A stretch of 64,000 nt of DNA, from NCBI GenBank assembly GCA_963777125.1, contig CAVZPN010000024.1, positions 6,596 to 70,595 of the forward strand, in the 5' to 3' direction. The DNA comes from an uncultured archaeon. GTDB lineage: Archaea > Nanobdellota > Nanobdellia > Woesearchaeales > UBA9642. Positions within the stretch are counted from its first letter, which is position 1, and each line of letters opens with the position of its first letter. The notes under the pieces were generated by a model, which saw only the letters and a program-made list of their open reading frames with translations, was not told the origin of the DNA and did no database searches. The position numbers and the translations under genes are program-made. Below, piece by piece: positions 10,925 through 55,541 of the stretch.

Positions 10925-11746
10925 ATGAAGTTGCGTAAAATTAAAGATTTTTTAAACAACATTTTCCATGGTGTTAAAGGCAGTGCAATATTCTTTATGC
11001 TAGGAGTAATATTTTTCGCATTCTGGAAATTAATATATATTATTACATCTAAAGATTTACTATTATCCAAATATTTAATCTCAACAGTAATGGGCAGTCT
11101 CATAATTATAGGATTTATCTATGGAGTAATAGCATATAAAAAGAAAAATCATCATTATAAAATCTATACTATGACGGGTAAAAATTTTATAATTAACTTA
11201 ATATTAACAATAATATTTACAGGATATTTCTGGTATGTATTGAGAAATAAAGTCATTCCATCAAATACCATATACTTATTCTTCTTAGGAGCATTTATCT
11301 TATTTTATGCGTTCAGTGCATTAATCAGTAACATACATCATCATGTAACTAAAAAACAACATAAAAAAATAAAGAAAAGCACAATATTTTTTGCAGTAAT
11401 ATTTAATCCAATATTTATATTAATATATCTGTGGTTATTTAGCATGGTAGTATATAACTCAGTATATGTTCCTTGCGGTGTTAGTGTTATAGGAATAGAT
11501 AAGAATGTATACACAAGTAATACTAGAAATCTTGGCATAACAGCTAATGAACGAATAATTCTTATAGATAATATAGAAATAAATTCATTACAAGACGTTA
11601 GAGATTACATGGCAAGTCTTGAATCGACAAAAGAAGTGACTGTTGAAACGACTAAAAGCATATATTTAGTTAAAACATATCAAGTAGATAATAGAAGATA
11701 TATGGGACTATTACTAAAAGAGCAAGTATGTGCTAGAGAATATTAA
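10925..11746 (+). CDS. polytopic membrane protein with C-terminal PDZ-like domain
   Basis: Multiple TM helices. C-terminal GVSVIGIDKNVYTSNTRNLGITANERIILIDNIEINSLQDVRDYM resembles a PDZ fold. SD gagggtg lies upstream of the ATG. Confidence 0.5.
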   Translation: MKLRKIKDFLNNIFHGVKGSAIFFMLGVIFFAFWKLIYIITSKDLLLSKYLISTVMGSLIIIGFIYGVIAYKKKNHHYKIYTMTGKNFIINLILTIIFTGYFWYVLRNKVIPSNTIYLFFLGAFILFYAFSALISNIHHHVTKKQHKKIKKSTIFFAVIFNPIFILIYLWLFSMVVYNSVYVPCGVSVIGIDKNVYTSNTRNLGITANERIILIDNIEINSLQDVRDYMASLESTKEVTVETTKSIYLVKTYQVDNRRYMGLLLKEQVCAREY

Positions 11747-11754
11747 TAATTTCC

Positions 11755-12618
11755 TTATTTATTAATTATTGTGCGTTTACCTTTAAAACTTATACAAGGA
11801 ATGTCTTTAGCCCTATTTTCTAAAGGAACAAATAACTTATACCTCGTTGGATCTAAATTAATATATTTTTCCCCTAATTTAATACCAACCCACATATAAC
11901 TTTCTAAACTATTATTTTTATTAACACGATTACCTAGGCATATTCCTGCATTAAAGCGATAATAAGTTAATATGGAATACAATGCTAAACTCAAATCATT
12001 ACTATCACCTAATTTACCATTAGTTAATTGTTCAAGATCAACATATGAAGGACTTAATTTTCCCGTTCGCATATGTTTTACTGATAAATTATATATTTTT
12101 CTTAATCTTTCGTCTTGAGAAGACTCAGTAGCATTTATAGAATCTAAAGAAAATACTAGTTCTTTTAAAGGAATAAATTTAGGTATAATATTATCACAAG
12201 AAGTATTAGCTACATAATAAAGCTGTTTAAAATTTTGCATAAGATTCATATTAATAGTATTTTCAAGCAATCTAAATGAATTAGCATCAAATGACCAAGT
12301 ATTAACATGTTCTAAACTATCTATAAGTCTAACATAATTTAAATATTTTGGCGTTAAATAATTACGATTAAGTTTATTTAAAACGAAGGAAGAAATACCT
12401 TTTTCATTTTCCATAAAACATGAATCAATAGAATTATAAATGCTTGGCCAAGGAGCATCATTTTTACGTTTGGAAATACTATCAGAAACTTCTCTTGTAG
12501 AATAACTATTGTTTATATTAGAAGGAATGCTTTTATTAAAATTATCAGCATACATATTACTAGTTAAAAATGTTAAGGCAGTAACAAAATACAACTTAGA
12601 TAAAGAGGATAACCCCAT
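11755..12618 (-). CDS. secreted transglutaminase-like (papain-fold) protein, predicted catalytically inactive paralog
   Basis: Signal peptide. C-terminal core aligns with the neighbouring paralog (YSILTYYRFNAGICLG...YMWVGIKLGEKYINLDPT). Leu and Met/Tyr occupy the positions of the catalytic Cys and His. Confidence 0.5.
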   Translation of the reverse strand: MGLSSLSKLYFVTALTFLTSNMYADNFNKSIPSNINNSYSTREVSDSISKRKNDAPWPSIYNSIDSCFMENEKGISSFVLNKLNRNYLTPKYLNYVRLIDSLEHVNTWSFDANSFRLLENTINMNLMQNFKQLYYVANTSCDNIIPKFIPLKELVFSLDSINATESSQDERLRKIYNLSVKHMRTGKLSPSYVDLEQLTNGKLGDSNDLSLALYSILTYYRFNAGICLGNRVNKNNSLESYMWVGIKLGEKYINLDPTRYKLFVPLENRAKDIPCISFKGKRTIINK

Positions 12619-12816
12619 AGCAAAGATAAAAACAAATATATTTAAAAATATTACTATTCATGATTAAAACAACAGTCGCAAATAAGCGCAGTTAATCATT
12701 ATTAACACAAAGAAATTCAAGGTATAATACTTCTTGCAAGAAAAAGTCATATAAATTTTTTTAATACGACATTAGTCAAGAGTTTAATATTAAGCAAAGG
12801 AAAAAAAAACAATATC

Positions 12817-13695
12817 TTAACGCACAGTAATTTTGCGCTTTACTCCAATATATTCATCCTTTACAGTATAACGTTTAATATCTTTACACCTATTTTCTAA
12901 CGGCACAAAAAAAGGATAATAAGTAGGATCTAAATCAATATATCCGTCATCTAAATTTACGCCAATCCAGGCATGATATATTACTTTTTTCCCAGAATTA
13001 TTAATTTGTTTTCCAAAACACATAACAGCATCAAATCCATAATAAGTTAAAATAGAATAAAATGCAGGAGCAACAGCATTACATTTACCTAATTGACCAC
13101 TGACCAGACTATTAATATCCACATCGTCATTTGCATCTTTATCTACACTAATTTTAGTATTCAAACAATTATACATTTTTCGTAATTTCTCTGAAAGATC
13201 TAACTTATCAACAGATATAGAATCTAAAGAAGATAATAAATATTTTAATGAAACAACTTCATTTTTTAAATCAGTTCTCGAAATAGACTCAACATTCGAA
13301 ATGAGTTGAAAATTACGTATAGCAGTATCTACAAGTTCATTACACGATTGTTCTATTAAAGAATCGGGTAGCAAGCCCCAAATACCAACATTTTCTAAAC
13401 TATCAACTCTTCTAAAATATTCTAAATAATCGTCTTTTTTGTAACGAGAATTATCAACATTATTCAAAAATCTCTCAGATATGCCTCCTTTTCGTATAAC
13501 AAAACTTCGAGCGGAAGAATCATATATCTTAGGCCAACAAATTATTTGTTGATTCTTATCAGTAGAACCACTTTGAGAAGTATTTTGAGCATTAGCATTA
13601 ATAGTAGCTATAGATACAGATGAAACAGTTAATAATGCAGCAAGAGATAAATTAGATAAATACGATAAACTCATTAAGTATAGAAAAATAAACAT
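12817..13695 (-). CDS. secreted transglutaminase-like cysteine peptidase-fold protein
   Basis: Signal peptide. GKCNAVAPAFYSILTYYGFDAVMCFG matches the G-x-C...A..F..L...G(I/V)PAR core. YHAWIGVNL...YIDLDPT matches the H-x-W and D-P-T motifs, giving a Cys-His-Asp triad. Confidence 0.55.
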   Translation of the reverse strand: MFIFLYLMSLSYLSNLSLAALLTVSSVSIATINANAQNTSQSGSTDKNQQIICWPKIYDSSARSFVIRKGGISERFLNNVDNSRYKKDDYLEYFRRVDSLENVGIWGLLPDSLIEQSCNELVDTAIRNFQLISNVESISRTDLKNEVVSLKYLLSSLDSISVDKLDLSEKLRKMYNCLNTKISVDKDANDDVDINSLVSGQLGKCNAVAPAFYSILTYYGFDAVMCFGKQINNSGKKVIYHAWIGVNLDDGYIDLDPTYYPFFVPLENRCKDIKRYTVKDEYIGVKRKITVR

Positions 13696-25296: not shown

Positions 25297-26238
25297 ATGA
25301 GTATTGAAGATATAACTCGAGAATTAAAAATTAAACCATACAAAAAATATGGTGACGAAATAACATATATATTCGCAGATATGTTAAAAAATACTGATAC
25401 ATGGAATGACGTTAAAATAGAAGAAGATGAACGACTTCTTGATTTTTTAAATGCATTCAATGATATAAAAATTGTAAACAATCTACCTGTATACGATCCT
25501 TCTAAACATATGCAAAAAGAATTCACAGGTTTTGTAAAAAATGAAAATCGACAAGAATTAAGTTTAAGCGAAGATCAAGAATTCTTTAAATATGCCAATT
25601 ATGCCTATATCCTAAATGGCACTACAAGATATATTCAGCACCATAAAATTACTGCATTTTTTAAAGAAAATTTTGTTTTCAAAATTAGTTCTAATCTTCC
25701 TGAATTCTTATCAAGACCTCCTGAACACTGGGCGGAAAATCCTGAAGAAATAGATTGGCATACTAGATATGCGCCACACGTAAGCTATAAAAGTAGACAA
25801 GCAGTATTCCATAATGACAATAATACTAGAATTTATGTTCAATTAAGTGATGAATTTAACGGTTTACCACCATTACTAAACATTACGGTTAACTCAACAA
25901 AAAAAGCATTATTCCATGACGGAACCGTAGGCAATAATACCATACAATTATGGATAAATCCTGAAAATACCTCAAGTCTAATTTATGAAGATTATTCTAA
26001 AGCATTAACAGAAATGCAAAAAGATCCTTATCTTTTCAATAATGCTAAAGAATTCCTAAAAACATTCGGAGAATTCTACATTGATACTCGTTCAGATATA
26101 ACGCATCCTATTGGACAAATATATTTTCCAAATAACATGCTTAAACCAAAAAATATAGATTATAGAAATATAGATAGCAATAGAATAAAATTATCTGAAA
26201 TTATAGATATAATACCTCATTACATAGAAAGAAAATAA
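25297..26238 (+). CDS. hypothetical protein
   Basis: 313 aa ORF directly downstream of hef. The next ORF starts 2 nt later. Confidence 0.45.
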   Translation: MSIEDITRELKIKPYKKYGDEITYIFADMLKNTDTWNDVKIEEDERLLDFLNAFNDIKIVNNLPVYDPSKHMQKEFTGFVKNENRQELSLSEDQEFFKYANYAYILNGTTRYIQHHKITAFFKENFVFKISSNLPEFLSRPPEHWAENPEEIDWHTRYAPHVSYKSRQAVFHNDNNTRIYVQLSDEFNGLPPLLNITVNSTKKALFHDGTVGNNTIQLWINPENTSSLIYEDYSKALTEMQKDPYLFNNAKEFLKTFGEFYIDTRSDITHPIGQIYFPNNMLKPKNIDYRNIDSNRIKLSEIIDIIPHYIERK

Positions 26239-26239
26239 G

Positions 26240-27205
26240 ATGAACGAAGAAAGTAAGATAGACAAAAAAAGACGAAAATTCTTAGAATACAGCGTATTAG
26301 CTGCAATATGCACAACAAAAATAATACTAAAACGTGAATCGGATGCTAATTTAAAGAAAACTGATGACGAGATTAATCCTGCGCCAGTAAACATGCAATT
26401 AGATCAAAAAACTATGTCAGAAATATGGGGTCAATCCAACTATACTCCACACATTTTTGAAACTAATATAAATGAAATTCAACATAAAAGTTTAGGCGTT
26501 AGTCACACAAGAAAATTTGCGCAAATATATTATGATACACTAGAAGAATTAGTTAAAAACTCTAAATACGTTATCTCTGAAGGTGGACCAGAACATTTAG
26601 AAAAAGAATATGTATTCAATGATGCCAAAGCATATTTTGGAACTATAATCAAATTATGTCAACGATATCATAAACCACTAATATTTACGGATCCCTTAAC
26701 AACAACTATAGAAAAATCTGAATTAGCATTATTTATGGTCGCTATGGCTGGAATAACACTAAATAATAAACAAACAGCCTCAAGAAGAACAATAATAAAA
26801 AATGTAGTAAAGGCAGGACTAGCATATTTAAGTATAGGCTCAAGTATAGAAAATTATATTAAAACACCCTTAGATTATGAAACATATTTTAATAGTATTG
26901 GAGCGCAAAAAGCCAGATATTTTAGTGCGATAGATCAAAGAAATGTAGAACTAACTAGAAGAATAACTGCATTATCAAAAGTATTACCACAAAAATATAC
27001 TAATGGAAATTATGTTCTATTTACCTACGGCAAATTACACACAGCAGGCATAGAATATTATCTAAAACATCCAAATATATTACAAGCAAAACATCTTCTT
27101 TATGCATCAAATTATAATCTAATAGATAATGACGATGTTAAAGAATATTCTTGGAACAATAACAGCTGGAATATGAAACCAATACAATTAACACTTAATC
27201 AATAA
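26240..27205 (+). CDS. hypothetical protein with a weak RR-F-L motif at the N-terminus
   Basis: 321 aa. N-terminus has KKRRKFLEYSVLAAI. This is a possible Tat-like signal, but the h-region is weak. Confidence 0.4.
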   Translation: MNEESKIDKKRRKFLEYSVLAAICTTKIILKRESDANLKKTDDEINPAPVNMQLDQKTMSEIWGQSNYTPHIFETNINEIQHKSLGVSHTRKFAQIYYDTLEELVKNSKYVISEGGPEHLEKEYVFNDAKAYFGTIIKLCQRYHKPLIFTDPLTTTIEKSELALFMVAMAGITLNNKQTASRRTIIKNVVKAGLAYLSIGSSIENYIKTPLDYETYFNSIGAQKARYFSAIDQRNVELTRRITALSKVLPQKYTNGNYVLFTYGKLHTAGIEYYLKHPNILQAKHLLYASNYNLIDNDDVKEYSWNNNSWNMKPIQLTLNQ

Positions 27206-27236
27206 TATTTATAAAATAAAGATCAGGTGATTTAAT

Positions 27237-27638
27237 ATGCCTAATAAAAAAGAAAAAGCATTAAGAGACATAGTAAACACAGAAATAAATAAGATACAAA
27301 AAAAGGCAGAAGAAAGAATTAAATTAGTAGAATATTCTAAAATAATTTTTGATATAAATTATAAACAAATAAAAGAAGCAAATCCTAAATATGGAAATGA
27401 TGACGTAGAATTATTCTTAATAACAAAAGAAAAAGTTGAAAAATTAATAACCCTAACTAACTCTAACTACTTTATACATTTAAATAAGAATGAAGATCAA
27501 AAAGAATTAGAAACAATTGCGGAATGGACTACTGTTGTAGGTGCTGATGAACCAAGTCTTGGATATCATAGAAGATTAAATGAATTAGGGAGAGGACTAA
27601 TGATTGGATGGCAAGAATATAAACGCACATTTAACTAA
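27237..27638 (+). CDS. hypothetical protein
   Basis: 133 aa ORF, co-directional with the two preceding genes. Confidence 0.4.
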   Translation: MPNKKEKALRDIVNTEINKIQKKAEERIKLVEYSKIIFDINYKQIKEANPKYGNDDVELFLITKEKVEKLITLTNSNYFIHLNKNEDQKELETIAEWTTVVGADEPSLGYHRRLNELGRGLMIGWQEYKRTFN

Positions 27639-28550: not shown

Positions 28551-29144
28551 TTAATATTTCTTCTTTAATATTTCTTTGTATATTTCATTAACATCTTTAT
28601 ATAATTTAGAATCTTCAAGTCGCGTAAATACTTCATCATTGTTTATTAAAAAATCCGCTTGTACAAGACACATTCCTACTTGTTGACCATTTAAGGGTTC
28701 ATTAAATCCTCTATCTCTTGCATCTGCAATTACAAATTTATCAGTATTTAATAATTCTGCATCACGATTTCTTGCTTGAATTCTATGCCATCTTACTTCA
28801 AAAGGTGCATCAACACCAATTAAGGTAAAATTAGAATTCTCTCTTAAATATACTATTTCATCAACATTTCGTATGCCGACAATTATTAATGGAATATCAT
28901 AAGAATCATATTTTTTTAATGCTCTTACTGCAAGTACTGAACCGCCTTCATTTTTTCGCAATTCATTACCTAAGTCCTGTTGACTGCTACGAGTTATTTC
29001 AAGACCACGTAATGTTAATTCATCTCGACAGACTTCTCCAAGACTAATTAAGTGACATCCTTTTGTTTTAAGTATTGCTGCAACTACATCTTTTCCAGAA
29101 CATATTGTTCCACTAATTCCTATAACTAATTTTTTTTGTTTCAT
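28551..29144 (-). CDS. P-loop nucleotide/nucleoside kinase (dephospho-CoA kinase-like, UPF0200-like)
   Basis: Walker A ISGTICSGKD and a lid-like R-rich region. The ATG overlaps the histone stop codon (ATGA). Confidence 0.55.
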   Translation of the reverse strand: MKQKKLVIGISGTICSGKDVVAAILKTKGCHLISLGEVCRDELTLRGLEITRSSQQDLGNELRKNEGGSVLAVRALKKYDSYDIPLIIVGIRNVDEIVYLRENSNFTLIGVDAPFEVRWHRIQARNRDAELLNTDKFVIADARDRGFNEPLNGQQVGMCLVQADFLINNDEVFTRLEDSKLYKDVNEIYKEILKKKY

Positions 29145-29356
29145 TTTTTATTTTTGGCCGCAAATTTTACATCTTCAGCTTTAATTGTTTTTCGACCAGC
29201 ATGTATTGATAATTCTGCTGCAGCCTTTGCAAGTTCAAGACCTTTTTCTTCTAAATATAATCTCAATTCTTCCTTTGCAGGCTCGCTTACACGAATATCT
29301 GAAGATCCTTTTTTTAAAATCTTTTCCATAGCTGCTAACGGCAATATTTTACTCAT
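29141..29356 (-). CDS. archaeal histone (HMf family histone fold)
   Basis: MSKILPLAAMEKILKK...RVSEPAKEELRLYLEEKGLELAKAAAELSIHAGRKTIKAEDVKFAAKNKK aligns with HMfB (LPIAP..RI.K.AGAERVS...HAGRKTIKAEDI). The ORF-track start at 29377 is probably an upstream in-frame Met. SD gagggtga lies 4 nt before the ATG at 29356. Confidence 0.85.
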   Translation of the reverse strand: MSKILPLAAMEKILKKGSSDIRVSEPAKEELRLYLEEKGLELAKAAAELSIHAGRKTIKAEDVKFAAKNKK

Positions 29357-29385
29357 GAAATCACCCTCAAATTCCAAAACAAGTT

Positions 29386-29425: not shown

Positions 29426-29502
29426 ATTAACAATCTAGAATCGCCTATTTAAAGATTACGGAATATAAAAAAATTTAAATAGAATACTAAGTTAATCTAA
29501 AT

Positions 29503-30180
29503 ATGTGGTTAGCTAAACTCAAACTTCAACATAAAGATTGTCCTATTGTTAATCGCTGTAATAAATTTAATCTTATTGTTTATTCTTATCCGAGTACGTG
29601 GTATCAAGAAAAGAACAAAAAGTATGCCACAACTACTTGCTTTTTTCAAAGTCAAGATAAAATCAAAAAAAATAAATTCTTATTAGATCTAAAGGCAGAC
29701 CGTCGAATTACAAATATAGAAATCTCAGGAGATATGTTCACATATGAAATAAGACTTCTTGGAAACGGTGAACATGTAATGTTATATCATACTAAGCAAA
29801 TATTTTTTATTAAACCAGTTATTAATCATCCAGATGGTCATGAATATTGGGAAGTAGCTTCATGGAAAAAAGAAATCTTAAGTAAATTTATAGAAGACCT
29901 GTCAGCACATATGAATATTTGTAAAATACTTAAATTAGTAGAACAACCTGTCACAGATATTTATCTTCCAAATGTTATGCCAAAACTTTCAGACCAACAA
30001 AAAAAAGCGTTAAAAATAGCTTATGAAAATTCATACTATACATATCCTAGAAAAAATTCTTTAACAACACTTGCTAAAAAGTCAGGATTAAGCGTATCAA
30101 CATTTCAAGAACATCTCCGTAAAGCAGAACTTAAGCTTTTACCAATTATCATTGAACAACAACTTAAAGAAGAAAATTAG
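29503..30180 (+). CDS. HTH_10 (Bat-like) DNA-binding domain protein
   Basis: C-terminal LSDQQKKALKIAYENSYYTYPRKNSLTTLAKKSGLSVSTFQEHLRKAELKLL matches the HTH_10 helix-turn-helix family. Confidence 0.55.
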   Translation: MWLAKLKLQHKDCPIVNRCNKFNLIVYSYPSTWYQEKNKKYATTTCFFQSQDKIKKNKFLLDLKADRRITNIEISGDMFTYEIRLLGNGEHVMLYHTKQIFFIKPVINHPDGHEYWEVASWKKEILSKFIEDLSAHMNICKILKLVEQPVTDIYLPNVMPKLSDQQKKALKIAYENSYYTYPRKNSLTTLAKKSGLSVSTFQEHLRKAELKLLPIIIEQQLKEEN

Positions 30181-30262
30181 TGCCTAATAATTCCATTCTA
30201 TAAAAATATGTGCCGTATATGTTCGGTAAAAGCATTATATCTATAGTTCCATTCCTAACTTA

Positions 30263-31411
30263 ATGACCCAAATAGAATTAGATAATTTAGTAGCCAATAT
30301 AATCTATAATACTGAAATTATAAACGAGGCAAGAAAAACACCTCCAGTACTCACCGAGGCAGAAGCAACAGAAATTGGTAAAATAATAGGAGCAAATAAT
30401 ATAAGTATAGATGTTAATTTAGCGCAAATATTTCTAAAAGAACAGTTTGAAGTATTTTTTGAAGCATATGCCAATAGAAATATAACTGCTGCATTACAAA
30501 GTTTGACCGATCTTAAATTTAGTAATCAATTAATTCCGACACTATATTCTAAACCCAATAAGTATTTTATTACACTCGAACAAAAACTACCTATGAAAGA
30601 TCCGGAATATGAAAATTATGAAGCACCATATTTTTTATCATTTAAAGAATTACGTAAAATAATAAGACATTCAAAAGACAGTATTCCTGTAGGAAATCAA
30701 ATAACGGTTAATGGAGTAAAACCAAATAAAGACTACTTTAAAACTGGAGAAGAAATGCTTATAAATATAAAACAGGCAGAAGAATCACTAATTAAATATC
30801 ATTTTACAATACATCAACTAAGTCATAAGAAAAAACACGCCAAAGAAATAAAGATAATAGGAAATGATTTTCGTAAATACGAGAGTTGGACAGGCGATGT
30901 TAAAATAATTGATTATAGTAATAATAAGTTAAAATATACATATTCTGATTTAAAGGGAAGAGAAAAAACAGAAACAGCTTCACGAATAAATATTAAAACA
31001 TACATCGAACCAGGAAGTAGTATGAATTTACTGGTGCCAAATATAGAATTAGATACTCTGGAGTCAATAATTTCTGCAATACAAAAGAATAATCCTGAAA
31101 AAGAAATAAACATAACAACAATAAAAAAATCCTATCAAACATATTTAGCGATTACTGATTGGGAAAAAGAGCTTGTATACAATCAGTACCTAAATTGTAC
31201 ACATAATAATGATATGTATATACTTAGATACCACAAAAAAGTTTTCGCTGCAATAGCCAAAAGAATGGATACAACATATATTAGAAAAATAGACTCACTT
31301 ATTACTAAACACTGGTATTTACAACCACTTATCGGAATAGTAGCATATATAAAAGAAGAATTTCCATATAAAATAAAATTTAAAATAGATTTCTCAGTTA
31401 AGAGAAAATAA
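30263..31411 (+). CDS. hypothetical protein (382 aa)
   Basis: Uninterrupted ORF with no recognisable motif. Confidence 0.45.
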   Translation: MTQIELDNLVANIIYNTEIINEARKTPPVLTEAEATEIGKIIGANNISIDVNLAQIFLKEQFEVFFEAYANRNITAALQSLTDLKFSNQLIPTLYSKPNKYFITLEQKLPMKDPEYENYEAPYFLSFKELRKIIRHSKDSIPVGNQITVNGVKPNKDYFKTGEEMLINIKQAEESLIKYHFTIHQLSHKKKHAKEIKIIGNDFRKYESWTGDVKIIDYSNNKLKYTYSDLKGREKTETASRINIKTYIEPGSSMNLLVPNIELDTLESIISAIQKNNPEKEINITTIKKSYQTYLAITDWEKELVYNQYLNCTHNNDMYILRYHKKVFAAIAKRMDTTYIRKIDSLITKHWYLQPLIGIVAYIKEEFPYKIKFKIDFSVKRK

Positions 31412-31421
31412 CCTATTACCA

Positions 31422-31928
31422 TTAATTCTTAAGATTTATTAAATTACAAGATAAATCAAAATTAATCTTTAATAGTGACCACATATAATCATAAGAATTG
31501 TCTGTAATAATTTTCACATTATTATCATGATCTGTTGTTCTAATGGAATTTTTAGTGACTGTTCCATATTCGTGTGATAATGCACTATATACTGTTCCTT
31601 CTACCAATTGTTTTGTTTTATTTAAAAATCTAAAATCTGTAACTATATTTCTTCCATAATCTACTAATAATATCTGACCATATATTTCATCAACAACCTT
31701 ATTAGAGTAATAATTCTCTTGTGTTTTATACTTAGTCAAATTAAGGTCAAAATTTTTATAATGTTCAGGTTTATTTTTCAGAAGATAATCATAATCTTTT
31801 ATATCATCTAACTTAAACAACCCTACATGTTTGTTTTGTTGAGCGTTTACGCTAAAAGTATCAGTCAATAATAGTGCACCAATTGATGCAACAGCACTTT
31901 TCTTCAAAAAATCTCGTCTAGTTGTCAT
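31422..31928 (-). CDS. secreted protein with twin-arginine (Tat) signal peptide, paralog A
   Basis: MTTRRDFLKKSAVASIGALLL is a canonical (S/T)RRxFLK motif plus h-region. First approximately 57 aa and the upstream 70 bp are near-identical to the adjacent paralog. Confidence 0.6.
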   Translation of the reverse strand: MTTRRDFLKKSAVASIGALLLTDTFSVNAQQNKHVGLFKLDDIKDYDYLLKNKPEHYKNFDLNLTKYKTQENYYSNKVVDEIYGQILLVDYGRNIVTDFRFLNKTKQLVEGTVYSALSHEYGTVTKNSIRTTDHDNNVKIITDNSYDYMWSLLKINFDLSCNLINLKN

Positions 31929-31988
31929 AGTAATTACCTATTAAATTTTAATCGAATATAGTTTAATTAAGTATAATTATGAATAATA

Positions 31989-32510
31989 TTATTTATCATG
32001 CTTATAAAAAGTATTATTAAAAATGAAGTCATAAGCAGTATGAAATTGTGATTTCGTTTTATTCCATTCTTCAATATAACAATTTACGCTAGTCTCCGTA
32101 TTAATATTATGATTAATAGTAGTTATATTATCTTTAGTTGTTTTTTCAGACATATGTGAATTAGCAGAATATCTTGTACCTTCTACTAACTGGTTTGAAT
32201 CTATTAAAAACCTAAAATCTTTAACACTATGGTTTTCATAATCTACAACTAATATCTGACCTAATTGTTCATTTGCAGATATATTAGAATAATAACTTCT
32301 GCCATTAACAGAACTAACAACATTAAGCTTTAGGCTATTATAATGTTCAGGTTTATTTTTCAGAAGATAATCGTAATCTTTTATATCATCTAACTTAAAC
32401 AACCCCACATGTTTGTTTTGTTGAGCGTACACACTAAAAGTATCAGGCAACAATAATGCACCTACTGATGCAATAGTGCTTTTCTTCAAAAAATCTCGTC
32501 TAGTTGTCAT
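31989..32510 (-). CDS. secreted protein with twin-arginine (Tat) signal peptide, paralog B
   Basis: MTTRRDFLKKSTIASVGALLL. Tandem duplicate of 31422..31928 with a diverged C-terminal two thirds. Confidence 0.6.
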   Translation of the reverse strand: MTTRRDFLKKSTIASVGALLLPDTFSVYAQQNKHVGLFKLDDIKDYDYLLKNKPEHYNSLKLNVVSSVNGRSYYSNISANEQLGQILVVDYENHSVKDFRFLIDSNQLVEGTRYSANSHMSEKTTKDNITTINHNINTETSVNCYIEEWNKTKSQFHTAYDFIFNNTFYKHDK

Positions 32511-32759
32511 AGTAATTATCTATTAAATTTTAATTGAATATATTTTAATTAAGTATAAATTATGAATAATAATATTATTTATATAGTTTTCGTTTTTGTA
32601 ATCACTCTTTAGTGATACTCTTGATTTAATAAATAATTAAATGGTATTAAACAAAGTCAAGTAATGACACTGAATACATAATCATAAAACATATAAACAT
32701 TAAAATTACTAAATACTATTAAATTAATAAGGAATTATAAGGCAGTAATAAATTAAAAG

Positions 32760-33632
32760 GTGATTTATATGGTACGTAAAGCAGTTTTCGCAGGACAATT
32801 CTATGAACATAATGAACAAGATTTAGATAAACAAATTACTGAATGTTTTGAAGGAAAAAATGGTCCAGGAGCTTTGCCATTAAATAAACGAGCAGGAATT
32901 ATTCAAGCAATAATTGCACCACATGCAGGTTATACTTATTCAGGAGCTTGCGCAGCTTGGGCATATAAAGAAATTGCTGAATCAGAATTTGCCGATGTAT
33001 ATATTATTCTTGGTCCTAATCATGCTGGAAATGGTAACGCATTAAGTATGCAAGGTTACGAAACACCATTTGGCCTAGCAAGAGTTGATCAAGAATTTGC
33101 AAATGCATTACTTGAAAAAAATTCTGAATTAAAAGTTGATGAAACAGCACATGAAGCAGAACACAGCATAGAAGTTCAAATTCCATTTTTACAATTTGCA
33201 ACTAAAGATAAGATGCATGAATTAAAAATAGTTCCAATAATATTAAGTAATATCGACTATAATAAATTAGGTCTTGATATTAAAGAAACAATAATTGAAA
33301 GTGGGAAAAAAGTTGTTATAATAGTAAGTAGCGATTTTACTCACTACGGAAGAAACTATCATTACATTCCTTTCAGTACTGATGTTAAGAAAAATATTTA
33401 TAATAGAGATAAGCAAGGAATAGAGTTAATAGAAAAACTTAATGCGGATGCATTTATGGGCTACATTGATGAAACAATGGGAACAATATGTGGAGCATTT
33501 CCAATAGCAACATTATTAAAAAGTATTAAAAGTGATAAAATAGAATTATTACAATACTACACTAGCGCAGATCTAGAAGAAGAACAATCATACAAGAATT
33601 CAGTAAGTTATGCGGCAATGGTGTTTAGATAA
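32760..33632 (+). CDS. MEMO1 / AmmeMemoRadiSam system protein B family (UPF0103)
   Basis: AVFAGQFY...APHAGYTYSGACAAWAY...ILGPNH motifs typical of the Memo-like family. Confidence 0.7.
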   Translation: MIYMVRKAVFAGQFYEHNEQDLDKQITECFEGKNGPGALPLNKRAGIIQAIIAPHAGYTYSGACAAWAYKEIAESEFADVYIILGPNHAGNGNALSMQGYETPFGLARVDQEFANALLEKNSELKVDETAHEAEHSIEVQIPFLQFATKDKMHELKIVPIILSNIDYNKLGLDIKETIIESGKKVVIIVSSDFTHYGRNYHYIPFSTDVKKNIYNRDKQGIELIEKLNADAFMGYIDETMGTICGAFPIATLLKSIKSDKIELLQYYTSADLEEEQSYKNSVSYAAMVFR

Positions 33633-49195: not shown

Positions 49196-50671
49196 TTGAA
49201 AGGAACAGTTATGAAAATAAGTATTAAAAAAAATAATAGCGTATTAATGAGTATATTTATATTGCTTACAGTAATATTTTTAACAGGATGTCAGGGTAGT
49301 GGTACTACGGAAAAATATCGTATTGGAACTGAAGGATTAAACTTAGAATTTGCATCATCTAATGTTAAAAGTGTATACGAAAACGAAAACTTCGGAACAT
49401 CAATAATTATCAAAAATATTGGTAGTTATGATATTTTAGATCAGAGTAATCCCGCAATATTAAAAGTTAGTTTTGATGATTATAGATTAAAATTTACTAA
49501 TTCTAAAGAAAATGTTAAAGAACAACAAATGTTAATTAATGGTAAAAGCAAATATTATCCTAAAGGAGATGAAATAAACTCAGAATACTATTTTGAATCA
49601 TTAAAACTCACTGATTTGAGAGAAAAATCAACTACTGAAATTAATTATAACTTATGTTATCCATATAATACTGAAATAACCACAGTTACATGTATTGATA
49701 CAAAACTTGCTAATAAAGATCAAACTGCAGCAGCATGTGCAAGTGAAACATATAGCGGATCTCAAGGTCAAGGAGCACCAATTGTTATAACTAAAATCGT
49801 ACCAGAAATCATGTTGCAAACAGAATATGTACGTCCACAATTTAAAATATATATTGAAAATAAGGGACCTGGATATGTTAATAACGCAAATAGTTGCAAT
49901 GTTGCAGATATTAATGATAGATCATCTTCAGGAAGAGTTAACGTATACGCTACTCTTTCAGGAACTCCTTTAGAATGTGGTCCTGATAATTCAGCATCAC
50001 TAAAATTAGTTGATTCTGAATCATTTATTAGATGCTATCTTCCAAATAAAGAAAAAGGATATTCACGATTAGAAAAAAATTATTTAACTCCATTAACAGT
50101 TAGTATTGATTATACCTATACTGTAATTACTAAACAAGAAATAGAAATTAAAAGAGATGACACAATAGAACGTGTTGTAACAAAAGACTGTGATTCATAT
50201 CAAATATTAAATGAAAATAAAACATGTGTTGATAAATGCTTATATTGTACCACTCATCCAAATGAAGATGTATGTAAAGTAAATTTACCTTTTGCAGAAT
50301 TTGAATTTAAAGAAGGTTTTTCATGTAGTTGTACTCTTGATCAATGTAATAGCAGAAATAAAACAGGAAATTGTATTAAAGGATATTGCCCTGGTAGTTT
50401 GTATTGCTGTAATACTCCTGTTGTTTGTGATAAATATCAAATAGAATTTAAGGGAAAATGTATCAATAAATGCGATTACTGCAGAGATAACTGGACTACA
50501 AACCCTAATGATCCTATTTGTCTCTCTAAATATGATTTTACTAACGCAAAATGTGATTCAATTACTGCGACAACATGTGATTCATTAGCAAAAAATAATT
50601 CCTGCATAAAAGGATTTTGTGGAGGAACAGATTCAAATAAATATTGTGTAAATACCTTTCCACAAGTATAG
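49196..50671 (+). CDS. lipobox-containing (LTGC) surface protein, paralog family member with Cys-rich C-terminal repeats
   Basis: Signal peptide ending LTGCQGSG. Family N-terminal block (GTEGLNLEFASSNVKSVYENENFGTSIIIKNIG). GSQGQGAPIVITKI. Repeated CIKG(Y/F)C(P/G)G Cys motifs. Confidence 0.55.
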   Translation: MKGTVMKISIKKNNSVLMSIFILLTVIFLTGCQGSGTTEKYRIGTEGLNLEFASSNVKSVYENENFGTSIIIKNIGSYDILDQSNPAILKVSFDDYRLKFTNSKENVKEQQMLINGKSKYYPKGDEINSEYYFESLKLTDLREKSTTEINYNLCYPYNTEITTVTCIDTKLANKDQTAAACASETYSGSQGQGAPIVITKIVPEIMLQTEYVRPQFKIYIENKGPGYVNNANSCNVADINDRSSSGRVNVYATLSGTPLECGPDNSASLKLVDSESFIRCYLPNKEKGYSRLEKNYLTPLTVSIDYTYTVITKQEIEIKRDDTIERVVTKDCDSYQILNENKTCVDKCLYCTTHPNEDVCKVNLPFAEFEFKEGFSCSCTLDQCNSRNKTGNCIKGYCPGSLYCCNTPVVCDKYQIEFKGKCINKCDYCRDNWTTNPNDPICLSKYDFTNAKCDSITATTCDSLAKNNSCIKGFCGGTDSNKYCVNTFPQV

Positions 50672-50744
50672 ATTAAAAAAGCAGAATATATTATACTTAA
50701 AAAAAACATAATCTTTATATATTATACACACAGGAGTTAATAAA

Positions 50745-52046
50745 ATGGTATTCAAACTAAACAATAAAATATTCTTAATAAGCACCTTAGTAATTGTTTT
50801 AATTTTAATTACTGGATGCGGAAGCACTACAAGTAATGTTCAAAAAAAATATTACACAGGATATAACAGTTTAGAAATGAATTTTTTAAGCGATAGTCCA
50901 CCATCAATATTTTATTATGACAGTGAAGCTCATGATAGAGGGGACTATGCTGCAAATACTATACCAATACTTGTTCAAATACAAAATAAAGGTTCATCTG
51001 ACAGTTATGGTGCATTATTTATACATGGATTTGATCCAAATATAGTTGCTATTCAAGGATATACTTCAGGATTTCCAGGATATAATGGTCCAATTAGAGG
51101 AGCTAGTTCTTTTGGCGGATGGTACGGTAACAATAATAATTATGCAATTAACGCATTAAATGTTCCTATAGGTACAAATAGCTATAGTTTAAATCTTCAA
51201 AAAGTCAATGGCCAAACAGGAATATCTTTTTCATCATTTGGATCTCGTTCACAATTATTCGGATCACTCGGATTCTCTAAGACATCACAAGTAGGAACTG
51301 GCTATACTGGAATAAATGTTGGTGTAGTACAAAATCGTGTTGGCTCAGTATTAAATCCTATAACTCGAGGAATGTTTAATCAATATGGTTGGAATGGTTG
51401 GTTAAAAGAACTTGAATTAGAGGGTAGAAATTCTGAAAATCCTGCAGGCGGAATGGATGTTATAGAATTCCCTGCAACAATATTAACACTTCCTCCATCA
51501 CTAGAAGAATTTAGACAAAGAGTAATGGTTACATCATGTTTTGATTACGCAACACATTCATCAACAATGGTATGTATTGATCCAGAACCATACTCTAATG
51601 TTAAAAAATCTTGTTTAATAAATACTGTAAGCGGAGGCGCAGGTCAAGGAGCTCCTGTTGCGGTTACAAGTATTGAACAAAGACCTGGCAAGGGCAGAAC
51701 TACATTTATTATAAATATTAGACACAATAAACAAGGAACATACGATGAATTATATGATTACTTTAATTTATACAAATGTGATCCAGCATCTGGCGCAACT
51801 GTAAAAACAAATGATAAAAACATTGTATATGTTGGATATGTGTACTTATCTCAATATGATATAACAATGGATTGTATGCCTGATCAAATGATTAGACTTG
51901 ATGATTCGGGTTCAGGTCAGATAACATGTTCAATAACTTTCCCAGAAGGAATGGCAAGTAGCGCATATCAAGCACCGCTTGAAGTAGAATTATGGTATGG
52001 TTATTCGAAAACAATATACAAAGATATGATTATTAGAAGAATATAA
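50745..52046 (+). CDS. lipobox-containing (ITGC) surface protein, paralog family member
   Basis: Signal peptide ending ITGCGSTT. Family N-terminal block (TGYNSLEMNFLSDSPPS...IPILVQIQNKG) and GGAGQGAPVAVTSIEQ. Confidence 0.55.
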   Translation: MVFKLNNKIFLISTLVIVLILITGCGSTTSNVQKKYYTGYNSLEMNFLSDSPPSIFYYDSEAHDRGDYAANTIPILVQIQNKGSSDSYGALFIHGFDPNIVAIQGYTSGFPGYNGPIRGASSFGGWYGNNNNYAINALNVPIGTNSYSLNLQKVNGQTGISFSSFGSRSQLFGSLGFSKTSQVGTGYTGINVGVVQNRVGSVLNPITRGMFNQYGWNGWLKELELEGRNSENPAGGMDVIEFPATILTLPPSLEEFRQRVMVTSCFDYATHSSTMVCIDPEPYSNVKKSCLINTVSGGAGQGAPVAVTSIEQRPGKGRTTFIINIRHNKQGTYDELYDYFNLYKCDPASGATVKTNDKNIVYVGYVYLSQYDITMDCMPDQMIRLDDSGSGQITCSITFPEGMASSAYQAPLEVELWYGYSKTIYKDMIIRRI

Positions 52047-52104
52047 ATTAGTATAATAATAGTATAAACAAATATAATAATTAAATAAACCTAAAGGTGA
52101 TAAA

Positions 52105-53088
52105 ATGAATAAAGGCATAGTATTGGTAATGATTTTGGCTATAAGTTTGTTTTTAACTGGTTGCGGTAATACGGGCACAACAACCGGTAAAACATTTATT
52201 GGTGGAACAGAAGGATTAAAAACAAGTTTTCTTTCAGGAAATCCTCCAGCTGTAACAACAGACGGCGGAACTACACCATTTAGTATCGGCATAAAAATGG
52301 AAAATATGGGAGAAAGTAGTATTAAATCTAGCGACGGATATGTAGAAATTTGGGGAGCAGATGCTTCAACATATAGTTCTAAATATCCTGACTTTAAAAA
52401 AACATTTTCACAAGAAGCAACTTTTGGAGAAGAATTAAGTGGTGCTAAAATGAATTATGGTAACCAACTACACGGCGGAACCAGCACTCTTACATTTGAT
52501 GACTTAAAATATGTTCCTATAATCACTGGTGATAATCGTGAACAATTAATTAGAGCAAATGTTTGTTACAAATACTCAACACAAGCAACAGCACAAATTT
52601 GTGTAAAAAATAATATAGAACAAGCACTTAGTGGAAAAGAAATATGTACTGTTGAAGAAGAGAAAAATCCTCAAAATAGCGGCGCACCAATACATATTAC
52701 ATCATTAAAAGAATTCTATGGGGGTAATGGAAAAATAGGAATAACATTAACAATTGCTCATGTAGGAAATGGAGATGCATTTTTCAAAGATGATCAAATA
52801 AAATGCGTTGATAGCTTAAGCAACGGCGATAAAGGAAAAGTCAGAATAAAATTCAAAGACATACAATTAGGTGGAAAGAGTATTCCTGTAGTATGCCCTG
52901 GCGTTAGCGAAGATGGATATGTTAGATTGTATAGCGAAGGTGCAGGAAAAGAATCAACTAATGTTCAATGTACAATCGATGTTTCTGGCAATAAAAATGT
53001 TGTAGAGGTACCAATAGAAGCAGAATTAAGCTACGTATACTTACAACACATAGAAACTGGCTTAACAATACGACATGTAGTTCAATAA
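52105..53088 (+). CDS. lipobox-containing (LTGC) surface protein, paralog family member
   Basis: Signal peptide ending LTGCGNTG. Family N-terminal block (GGTEGLKTSFLSGNPPAV...FSIGIKMENMG) and NSGAPIHITSLKE. Confidence 0.55.
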   Translation: MNKGIVLVMILAISLFLTGCGNTGTTTGKTFIGGTEGLKTSFLSGNPPAVTTDGGTTPFSIGIKMENMGESSIKSSDGYVEIWGADASTYSSKYPDFKKTFSQEATFGEELSGAKMNYGNQLHGGTSTLTFDDLKYVPIITGDNREQLIRANVCYKYSTQATAQICVKNNIEQALSGKEICTVEEEKNPQNSGAPIHITSLKEFYGGNGKIGITLTIAHVGNGDAFFKDDQIKCVDSLSNGDKGKVRIKFKDIQLGGKSIPVVCPGVSEDGYVRLYSEGAGKESTNVQCTIDVSGNKNVVEVPIEAELSYVYLQHIETGLTIRHVVQ

Positions 53089-53354: not shown

Positions 53355-54575
53355 TTAACTTGTTACAAACATTCCGCCCATAAGTGTTGCAAACATCATA
53401 GAAGCCACATAATAAATTATTAATGATATAATTATAAATATTGGAATAAGCTTAGTACCATCTTTAACACTGCCTTTTCTAATAACACTAATTATAGCTG
53501 CAGAAAAGAACGAAGATATAATTAATACTAACATCGAAAATCTTCTAAAATCGTTAACATTAATGCTGTCATTAGAAAAATTAAAACTAAAAGAACCCAT
53601 ACCAGAGCTGTCTAATTGCAAACTACCAAAAATTTGCTGTATGATAATTAATAATTGAGTACTTAATGCAAATAATAATGGTGCCGCAAGTACTGAAGCT
53701 ACACCAATAAATATTGCATAAGTTGTAACACTAGCACCGATTTCTTTACGCATTAATTGCGTTTCTTTAATATTACTAGATAATTTATTCAATAATACTG
53801 CCATTTCTCCGCCGCTTCTAATACCCTCTACGATTAAATTTATTGTCTCTCGCAACATTCTTGATTCATACTTAGTTCCAAGACGCAATAATGCCGTTTC
53901 TAAATCATCTCCAACAATCGTAGATTTAGCAACATTTTCCATTTCTACAGCAAGTATTCCAAATTTTGATCGTATAGCATACCATAATGCTCTATCAACA
54001 GTCATTCCTGCACTAATATTAGCAGAAGCTAATTGTAAAAAATCAGGTAATGATTCTTCAATTTGACGTACACGATTATACATTTGTACATCCAAATATA
54101 AAAATATTGCAAGTATTGATAAAAAATATATTGCTAAAAATACTAATATCCAAATTACTAGTAAAAACAAGAATAATACATCAAGAGATTTATGATTAAC
54201 AATTACAAAAGATAAGATAATAAAAGATAATATTGCAGATATTATTGCGACAATTGTTAATATCTTTTTATTAATGTCTCTCGGACTAATCTCAAGACCC
54301 ATCCTAGTAACAAAATCTGCAAATAATCCTATTAACTTTTTTTTAGGCTTTGAAACTCTATCAAATTTACTGCTATTTTTTTGTAAGGCAACTCTCTTTA
54401 AATCTTTTTCAAAAGTGGCTTGATCAAAGTGTGCTTTTAATAAATTATTAAACTTGTCTCTAAAATTATTTAATGAGTTGAATTCTTTAAACTGTACAGA
54501 ACTATCTTGACTAGATATTAACTCTTCTTTAAAGTTTTTCAAACTTCTCTTTTTGTGTTCTATTGTATCGCTCAT
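53355..54575 (-). CDS. type II secretion system F-domain membrane protein (TadC/FlaJ-like)
   Basis: T2SSF-like segment (LPDFLQLASANISAGMTVDRALWYAIRSKFGILAVEMENVAKS...LETAL) flanked by TM helices. Confidence 0.65.
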   Translation of the reverse strand: MSDTIEHKKRSLKNFKEELISSQDSSVQFKEFNSLNNFRDKFNNLLKAHFDQATFEKDLKRVALQKNSSKFDRVSKPKKKLIGLFADFVTRMGLEISPRDINKKILTIVAIISAILSFIILSFVIVNHKSLDVLFLFLLVIWILVFLAIYFLSILAIFLYLDVQMYNRVRQIEESLPDFLQLASANISAGMTVDRALWYAIRSKFGILAVEMENVAKSTIVGDDLETALLRLGTKYESRMLRETINLIVEGIRSGGEMAVLLNKLSSNIKETQLMRKEIGASVTTYAIFIGVASVLAAPLLFALSTQLLIIIQQIFGSLQLDSSGMGSFSFNFSNDSINVNDFRRFSMLVLIISSFFSAAIISVIRKGSVKDGTKLIPIFIIISLIIYYVASMMFATLMGGMFVTS

Positions 54576-54633
54576 TTTTCTATTATTAATATTATTTATA
54601 CAATCATAATATAACTACATTATAAACATCATT

Positions 54634-55425
54634 TTATGTACTTATGGATGGTCTTGATGACTTTGCAACTGATAAAAACATAAATTGTACAAATCCAATC
54701 ATCACTGCAAGTACAACGAGTATAGTCATACTAATCTTTAAACCCATAAATGAAGCAGCAATTACTAGCATAGTTATTCCGAGTGATGGTACAATTATGG
54801 AAATAGTCATATAAAACATTGCTAAAGGACTAAGTTTTTTACCATATTCTGAAACAGCAATAGCTTGTTCTCGAACAATTTGTTCAGCCACTGAATTTAA
54901 TGCTCCTGCAACTTCAGTTCCTGTTTGCAAAGAATTCATTACTTGCCATAATAATCTTCGTAAATTTGGTGAAGGCGAAGTATTTAATGTATCACTTATG
55001 GCATCTTCCATTGTGGTCCCAAAATAAACTTTATTCAATATTTCACCAAAATAATATCCTATATATTCATAATTTTTTTCCATATCCTCAAATATTTTAT
55101 GTATTGGAACACCAGATTCTATTCCAATAATTAAAAATCGTGCAGCAAAAATTATTTCTTCATCTATTTTCTTTTTTATCTTTTCTATTTTTACATCTAC
55201 ATATTTTATAAAATACATAAATAAAAAAGGAAGACTAAATGGAATAATTAATATTGCCAAAAATGACGAAGTAAAAAAAAAGAACATAAAAAATAAACCT
55301 ATAGAAATCATCACTATTGTTGCAACTGTAGATTTAATATACTCTTCAGGCTCAGCAAGTATACCTGCTTGTCTAAGTTTTAGTCTTAACTCAGGCATAC
55401 GTTTGGAAAGGTAGGAATATAGCAT
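54634..55425 (-). CDS. type II secretion system F-domain membrane protein (TadB/FlaJ N-half-like)
   Basis: T2SSF-like segment (GVPIHKIFEDMEKNYEYIGYYFGEILNKVYFGTTMEDAISDTL) plus 3 TM helices. A 58 nt gap with stops in all frames separates it from the next gene. Confidence 0.6.
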   Translation of the reverse strand: MLYSYLSKRMPELRLKLRQAGILAEPEEYIKSTVATIVMISIGLFFMFFFFTSSFLAILIIPFSLPFLFMYFIKYVDVKIEKIKKKIDEEIIFAARFLIIGIESGVPIHKIFEDMEKNYEYIGYYFGEILNKVYFGTTMEDAISDTLNTSPSPNLRRLLWQVMNSLQTGTEVAGALNSVAEQIVREQAIAVSEYGKKLSPLAMFYMTISIIVPSLGITMLVIAASFMGLKISMTILVVLAVMIGFVQFMFLSVAKSSRPSIST

Positions 55426-55541
55426 AATATCACATTTTTGTTAAAACAATAACAACCCATAATAATATATTAAGGTTAAGTACAATATACTCACACATTA
55501 CAATTAATAGAGTATAATCTTATTATAATTAAAAGTAATAC

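Follow-up and report, generated by a model that had tools for sequence, protein, structure and literature searches.

Lineage-restricted tandem paralogues with a predicted Tat-type signal peptide and a common 5′ module in a Woesearchaeota-like archaeon

Results and Discussion

A 64-kb stretch of DNA from an uncultured archaeon (contig CAVZPN010000024.1 of assembly GCA_963777125.1, positions 6,596 to 70,595; hereafter the window) carries two adjacent paralogous genes, A (31422..31928) and B (31989..32510), which lie head-to-tail on the minus strand. The promoter, the leader and the first mature residues are nearly identical in the two genes, and the remaining C-terminal parts have diverged. We read A and B as lineage-restricted tandem paralogues which are exported by means of a signal peptide of the twin-arginine translocation (Tat) type, and which stem from an older duplication whose 5′ parts were kept alike by gene conversion and constraint; to this reading as a whole we assign a probability of about 0.55.

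Both genes were taken from the list of open reading frames (ORFs). Gene A encodes a precursor of 168 amino acids (aa), composed of a predicted 29-aa signal peptide and a 139-aa mature protein (16.5 kDa, isoelectric point 7.1). The corresponding values for gene B are 173 aa, 29 aa and 144 aa (16.9 kDa, isoelectric point 6.4). Each of the mature proteins contains one Cys.

Mosaic similarity of the two genes

Comparison of the two proteins by BLASTP gave an overall identity of 58% (E = 2e-60), which is distributed very unevenly: residues 1-29 are 83% identical and residues 30-57 invariant (100%), and the value falls to 49% over residues 58-120 and to 26% from residue 121 onward. A repeat search of the DNA revealed a direct repeat of 237 nt (31740-31976 and 32322-32558; 90% identity, spacing 582 nt). 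In the DNA alignment the upstream regions of approx. 65 nt are separated by 3 substitutions and a single 1-nt indel (approx. 95% identity), the first 32 coding nt are the same, and the upstream region together with the first 173 coding nt is 92-95% identical. The remaining approx. 330 nt are approx. 59% identical. Over coding nt 1-173 the two genes differ at 13 sites, and 135 differences fall within the 328 aligned nt that follow. The maximum chi-square method placed the similarity breakpoint in codon 58, at coding nt 173; its value of 61.6 was matched by 0 of 500 permutations.

The direct repeats, the alignment and the breakpoint together delimit a conserved 5′ module, composed of approx. 65 nt of promoter and 5′ flank and of codons 1-57, which occupies positions 31756..31996 in copy A and 32338..32582 in copy B (both on the minus strand). 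It is followed by the diverged 3′ part, which comprises codons 58-168 in A (31422..31755) and codons 58-173 in B (31989..32337; both on the minus strand). These parts, for which dN and dS are given below, still recognise one another in a phmmer comparison (E = 3e-17).

The upstream homology of copy A reaches into the final codons of gene B, which locates the duplication junction at approx. 31976-31996; the duplicated unit therefore consisted of promoter plus gene, with a length of approx. 585 bp. A scan of the window that allowed up to 3 mismatches found no further copy of the first 32 coding nt (0 expected by chance).

An earlier sequence-only reading of this DNA had described a tandem duplication with a common promoter and leader and with diverged C-terminal parts, in which approx. 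70 bp upstream and approx. 170 coding nt were near-identical. The alignment, the direct repeat and the breakpoint confirm this picture in all its details (approx. 65 nt of flank and 173 coding nt, at 92-95% identity).

Age of the duplication and selection on its parts

The same reading had regarded the duplication as recent, which the synonymous divergence does not support. By the method of Nei and Gojobori, the number of synonymous substitutions per site (dS) between A and B is already approx. 0.28 in codons 1-57, where the number of non-synonymous substitutions per site (dN) is 0.04 and their ratio (dN/dS, or ω) is 0.14. From codon 58 to the end, dS is approx. 0.74, dN 0.56 and ω 0.75, and it should be kept in mind that Nei-Gojobori dS runs high where dN is high. 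An older duplication, with gene conversion of the 5′ end, strong constraint upon it, or both, fits these values better than a recent one.

We propose the following course of events. The unit of promoter and gene would have been duplicated, not recently, to give the present pair. From the promoter through the signal peptide to mature residue 28, the copies would then have stayed nearly identical, likely through gene conversion between them plus purifying selection (ω 0.14); the 5′ module would be homogenised either by such conversion or by unequal recombination across the direct repeats. The C-terminal residues (approx. 110) may meanwhile have drifted or diversified. We favour an older duplication later homogenised in its 5′ module because the breakpoint is sharp, because the near-identity continues into the non-coding flank and because the proportion of synonymous sites that differ (pS) is lower in the 5′ part than in the 3′ part (0.23 vs 0.47).

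The pair may be compared with prokaryotic tandem paralogues that evolve in concert, gene conversion preserving the identity of part of their sequence. It resembles them in the sharp boundary between a tract of approx. 92-95% identity and one of approx. 59%, in an identical tract that spans the non-coding flank and enters the coding region, and in the arrangement of this tract as a direct repeat with 582 bp spacing. It differs from them in that there are two copies in one genome, for which conversion and constraint cannot be separated statistically (p = 0.12, see below).

A serious rival to this history is a single duplication of uniform age, without conversion, in which the 5′ module is under strong purifying selection and the C-terminal part under relaxed or positive selection. 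The two ω values (0.14 vs 0.75) agree with it, and the inflation of Nei-Gojobori dS at high dN lessens the contrast that it has to explain. When only codons with identical amino acids are considered, synonymous differences occur in 7 of 51 in the 5′ part and in 12 of 42 in the 3′ part, so that the dS contrast on which an older, homogenised duplication partly depends is not significant (Fisher p = 0.12); gene conversion between A and B is, accordingly, not proven. What a uniform age explains less readily is the flank of approx. 65 nt, non-coding and yet (at approx. 95% identity) conserved beyond the synonymous sites of the 5′ part, as well as the abrupt end of similarity at the breakpoint, the difference in pS, and the presence of just 2 synonymous changes across the 28 codons of residues 30-57. 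We consider a uniform age a real possibility, although somewhat short of an even chance.

The diverged tails had also been seen as diversifying cargo behind a conserved signal. The divergence itself is substantial, but its ω of 0.75 lies below 1, and relaxed constraint therefore accounts for it as well as diversifying selection, which is not demonstrated.

A layout with a conserved 5′ part and a variable 3′ part looks similar to systems of programmed variation, in which A and B would be targets of a diversity-generating retroelement (DGR) or partners in a switch between an expression site and a silent cassette. DPANN genomes are rich in DGRs. However, the mismatches show no adenine bias (A 56/140, C 18/31, G 26/47, T 35/112), and 3′ parts with approx. 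59% identity are unlike a pair of template and variable repeats. Each gene has a full promoter, the window holds no additional copies, and no match to a reverse transcriptase was obtained among the neighbouring ORFs scanned against Pfam. The mismatch spectrum, the promoters on both copies and the lack of extra copies effectively refute variation of the DGR or cassette kind, and we give it next to no weight.

Coding status of A and B

A and B are genuine protein-coding genes. We conclude this because their frames exceed those of shuffled DNA, because ω is low in the 5′ part, because the 3′ parts are homologous and because a Shine-Dalgarno-like motif is in place. The longest open frame observed is 173 codons; when the region was shuffled 1000 times, the longest open frame averaged 63 codons and never exceeded 120. 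The four frames without either gene are interrupted by 27-66 stop codons. The window has a GC content of 27.9%, and the frames of A and B stay open in DNA of 26-28% GC. Over the whole length of the two genes, ω is 0.62 (Nei-Gojobori).

The Shine-Dalgarno-like motifs, recognised by reading the sequence, are AGGTAAT at 31933..31939 (4 nt 5′ of the ATG of A) and AGATAAT at 32515-32521 (ahead of B), both on the minus strand. The motif of A resembles the AGGTGAT that precedes the ATG of the neighbouring Memo-like gene (32769).

The opposite view is that A and B are spurious or decaying ORFs, non-functional orphans. Such a view would be in line with the lack of homologues and the very low AlphaFold confidence (both described below) and with the ω of 0.75 in the 3′ part. 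It has to contend with two long frames kept open in AT-rich DNA well past the shuffle expectation, with an ω of 0.14 in the 5′ part, with 3′ parts that remain homologous (E = 3e-17), and with a canonical signal peptide and Shine-Dalgarno-like motif in place. We therefore regard decay as very improbable.

The signal peptides

The signal peptide of A (31842..31928, minus strand) is composed of the n-region MTTRRDFLKK, the 12-residue h-region SAVASIGALLLT and the c-region DTFSVNA, followed by QQ. That of B (32424..32510, minus strand) has the same n-region, MTTRRDFLKK, a 12-residue h-region STIASVGALLLP and the c-region DTFSVYA, again followed by QQ. Cleavage is predicted, by eye, before Q-Q and after V-N-A (A) or V-Y-A (B).

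The motif T-R-R-D-F-L-K (31902-31922 in A, 32484-32504 in B) fits the Tat consensus S/T-R-R-x-F-L-K at 7 of 7 positions, and both leaders pass the cut-off of the NCBIfam model TIGR01409 (TAT_signal_seq), with 21.8 bits for A and 21.2 bits for B against 16.7. The view of the sequence-only reading that the twin-arginine motif and the h-region are canonical is thereby upheld.

The h-region agrees with this assignment. A short, moderately hydrophobic h-region rich in Ala, Gly, Ser and Thr is an established difference between Tat leaders and those of the general secretory (Sec) pathway (PMC6098224). The best 10-residue Kyte-Doolittle mean is 2.2-2.4 for A and B and 3.2-3.5 for five of six other signal peptides or lipoprotein leaders of the window; the sixth, which belongs to a transglutaminase-like ORF at 12817, scores 2.1. 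The fraction of Ala, Gly, Ser and Thr is 0.5-0.6 in A and B vs 0.12-0.38 in the compared leaders.

The composition of the genome makes the leader more conspicuous. Arg accounts for 3.3% of the proteome and Lys for 8.7%, and 29 RR dipeptides were counted vs 161 KK; Arg being rare here, the RR pair is no compositional default. The 87 nt that encode the signal have a GC content of 36%, vs 23-26% for the two 3′ parts. The leader thus goes against the compositional grain of the genome, and the cost of its GC-rich Ala and Gly codons suggests that it is maintained by selection.

Set beside the Tat signals of bacterial and haloarchaeal substrates (TIGR01409, PF10518), the two leaders show the same S/T-R-R-x-F-L-K motif with a TIGR01409 score above the cut-off, a short, moderately hydrophobic Ala/Gly-rich h-region, a cleavage site of the A-x-A type and a length of approx. 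29 residues. The differences lie in the passenger, which is an orphan domain of approx. 140 aa without a cofactor motif, in the c-region, which lacks a basic residue, in the sub-threshold PF10518 score, and in the host, since Woesearchaeota are not known to have Tat and no translocase gene was seen in the window.

A third RR-bearing ORF of the window (26240-27205, KKRRKFLEYSVLAAICTTK) was not convincing as a Tat signal and gave no family match. It lies within 25297-27638 (plus strand), a region that contains three successive ORFs (313, 321 and 133 aa) without a Pfam or PHROG match, and the N-terminus of the middle one, KKRRKFLEYSVLAAI, is only loosely Tat-like.

Route of export

Export of A and B is predicted from the leaders. 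Each gene would give rise to an exported protein of approx. 16.5 kDa, set free through cleavage by signal peptidase I. Transport in the folded state by the Tat pathway would be the most likely route, provided that the genome encodes TatA and TatC, because TRRDFLK is combined with a weakly hydrophobic Ala/Gly/Ser-rich h-region and with V-x-A before Gln-Gln. Weighing the leader against the results given below, we put Tat against Sec at roughly even odds.

Several results weigh against the Tat route. Searches of all six-frame ORFs of the 64-kb window with Escherichia coli TatA, TatB and TatC and Bacillus subtilis TatAd and TatAy (phmmer) detected neither tatA nor tatC, a search of the window for the TatA motif found nothing, and no TatC was found by Pfam among its larger polytopic membrane ORFs (at least 4 predicted transmembrane segments) and several of their neighbours. 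The polytopic ORFs that could be identified encode an SBF-family transporter, two T2SSF proteins and an MFS transporter, and those at 10925, 17370 and 47626 had no family match. A crude TATFIND-like scan, of low power, found no other canonical RR leader in 1.07 Mb of related loci. A published reconstruction of Woesearchaeota lists Sec components only (PMC5994134). The Pfam model TAT_signal (PF10518) scored A at 14.2, below its gathering threshold of 22.7, and did not report B. The c-region contains one Asp and no basic "Sec-avoidance" residue, and neither mature protein shows a cofactor-binding motif to account for dependence on Tat. Finally, if the 5′ module was homogenised, the RR motif of one copy adds no independent evidence to that of the other.

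Most of these points also speak for an alternative in which A and B are exported by Sec in an organism without a Tat translocase, and the RR pair is simply tolerated or is left over from a leader that was captured or gained by horizontal transfer. This alternative has difficulty with the match at all seven consensus positions and the TIGR01409 scores above cut-off, with an h-region far less hydrophobic than those of five of the six compared window signals, and with the higher GC content of the leader, whose cost suggests selection. Some DPANN archaea, moreover, do possess Tat: its genes were reported in some Nanohaloarchaeota (PMC9765267) and in Micrarchaeota Mia14 (PMC5498576). No report of Tat use in Woesearchaeota was found, the literature being silent and nothing in it decisive. 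On balance, we judge Sec export with a relic or tolerated RR pair rather unlikely, though it deserves to be kept in view beside the Tat-type reading.

The sequence-only reading had already pointed out that tatA and tatC are absent from the window, and that Tat is not universal in small archaeal genomes. The absence was reproduced by phmmer and Pfam, and the host does belong among the small-genome archaea: it is a DPANN archaeon, the relatives of its neighbouring genes being Woesearchaeota.

Relatives and putative function

A search for homologues of B in 5.8 billion protein clusters returned B itself and its paralogue alone, both proteins being recorded from one NCBI/ENA contig of 86,813 nt. 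An exhaustive phmmer search with A of 1.84 billion representatives likewise found A and its paralogue, with one further match, which was spurious: a protein of 2912 aa, by eye adhesin-like, which consists of long Ser/Thr-rich tandem repeats nearly identical to one another and whose score was accumulated from 22 repeat stretches. At the DNA level, there were 0 matches to an exact 32-mer in genome contigs of GTDB representatives and in metagenome contigs of the Joint Genome Institute (JGI), and 0 confirmed matches to back-translated peptide patterns in JGI metagenome DNA.

Profile searches were equally negative, with 0 matches to A or B in the Protein Data Bank at E ≤ 10 and no match in PHROGs or PADLOC. 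Three sub-threshold family assignments were rejected: DUF4853 (17.4 vs a threshold of 34.8) and the NHL repeat (17.8 vs 20) were each obtained for B, were absent for A and were treated as chance, and DUF7597 (Pfam) was not common to both copies.

Structure prediction by AlphaFold2 from two-sequence alignments gave mean confidence values (predicted local distance difference test, pLDDT) of 37.1 for the full-length and 39.6 for the mature protein, and the models are unusable. Both low-confidence models would combine six or seven strands with two helices, one short and the other long and C-terminal, and we give this arrangement no weight.

The pattern of a conserved signal and promoter with divergent cargo had been taken as typical of secreted effector or surface families. 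The data do not bear this out, since A and B are the only members in the collections searched (protein, genome and metagenome), where the further family members that had been envisaged did not appear, and since ω in the tail is below 1. As a guess, the pair may encode a surface or extracellular protein with a common N-terminal module and a variable C-terminal part. A more far-reaching scenario, which we consider a long shot, would have A and B act at the surface of an episymbiotic Woesearchaeote or in its interaction with a host. They would be exported folded by a Tat pathway undocumented in the lineage, or by Sec if Tat is absent; the invariant 28-residue N-terminus of the mature protein would be a common docking module, diversifying selection would act on the C-terminal domain, and the pair would represent a newly born, genome-specific effector family.

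The family of A and B is new, and the kind to which it belongs, that of lineage-specific exported tandem orphans, is already known.

Genomic setting: the spacer between the histone and Memo genes

The genes in the neighbourhood are archaeal (histone, Hef, HTH_10, TrmB and two subunits of phenylalanyl-tRNA synthetase). The closest relatives of the Memo-like neighbour are encoded in metagenome-assembled genomes of Woesearchaeota and Nanoarchaeota, the best with 78% identity ("archaeon DeMMO2_15", locus L001 in our numbering of related loci). To judge from these genes, the host is a Woesearchaeota-like DPANN archaeon.

In the window, the histone gene (29141-29377) and the Memo-like gene (32760-33632) lie 3.4 kb apart. 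In three related loci (L001, 9672-10876; L065, 2038-2616; L004, 9570-10858), histone and Memo are divergent neighbours separated by approx. 100-200 nt, and these loci and the window have recognisable promoter motifs in common at the two genes. The divergent histone-Memo pair is kept across the Woesearchaeota relatives. One motif, CATAAAACATATAAA(T/C)A, found at 32677-32693 of the window, occurs upstream of Memo in all four genomes and probably represents a promoter (TFB recognition element and TATA box); a similar sequence, AAAAAATTTAAATAG, precedes the HTH_10 gene at approx. 29470.

Between the histone and Memo promoters, the window carries a lineage-specific segment of approx. 3.2 kb (29460..32670), which contains genes for an HTH_10 regulator (29503-30180) and for an orphan protein of 382 aa (orf382; 30263-31411, plus strand) in addition to A and B. 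The orf382 gene converges on gene A, their stop codons being 10 nt apart. No homologue of orf382 was found in the 5.8 billion clusters, in which the self-match was also lacking, and it had no Pfam, PHROG or PADLOC match. HTH_10, by contrast, is conserved among Woesearchaeota, with more than 100 clusters at 60-75% identity, and its orthologues occupy different neighbourhoods in other genomes; no relatives of A, B or orf382 were found beside those of loci L076-L079.

The same spacer holds unrelated cargo of 0.8-3.5 kb (lipoproteins, a LemA-like ORF and other ORFs) in loci L002, L003, L005, L007 and L008, and the intergenic site is therefore variable. We found no signs of a mobile element at the 3.2-kb segment, that is, no flanking repeats, tRNA, Rfam match or composition anomaly.

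Some of the related loci, among them L002 (DASPMU010000053.1), L006 and L007, are labelled "Alphaproteobacteria bacterium" or "uncultured Methanosarcinales", yet their Memo and histone genes are 66-71% identical to those of the window; they are probably mis-binned or mislabelled Woesearchaeota.

Other exported paralogues in the window

Tandem duplication of genes for exported proteins is common in the window. Three tandem paralogues at 49196-53088 (plus strand), which are 22-25% identical, have lipobox-like leaders (...LTGCQG, ...ITGCGS and ...LTGCGN), and the one tested had no Pfam match. A tandem pair at 11755-13695 (minus strand) is 37% identical, and its downstream copy combines a transglutaminase-core domain with a Sec-type signal peptide.

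The A/B pair is the youngest such tandem set in the window. Like the other two sets, and like small lineage-specific DPANN proteins of the secreted or surface type in general, it is arranged in tandem, carries N-terminal signals, has few or no homologues and resides in a small, AT-rich genome. The other sets have Lys-rich, very hydrophobic Sec signals or lipobox signals and an identity of 22-37%; A and B alone combine an RR signal with a homogenised 5′ module, and theirs is the only RR leader among these tandem sets.

The window also contains a type IV pilus- or archaellum-like cluster (53355-57839, minus strand), with genes for T2SSF proteins at 53355-54575 and 54634-55425 and for a 765-aa T2SSE/PilB-like ATPase at 55542-57839.

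Significance

As a secreted orphan family confined to one genome, with a promoter and leader module that has been homogenised, the A/B pair is a clean, small example of its kind. Its wider consequence is little as things stand, the finding being real but fairly ordinary. Should the genome encode TatA and TatC, A and B would be clear candidates for Tat substrates in Woesearchaeota. Should it lack Tat, the retention of a canonical RR leader at 28% GC would be a minor puzzle as regards the reading or acquisition of signal peptides.

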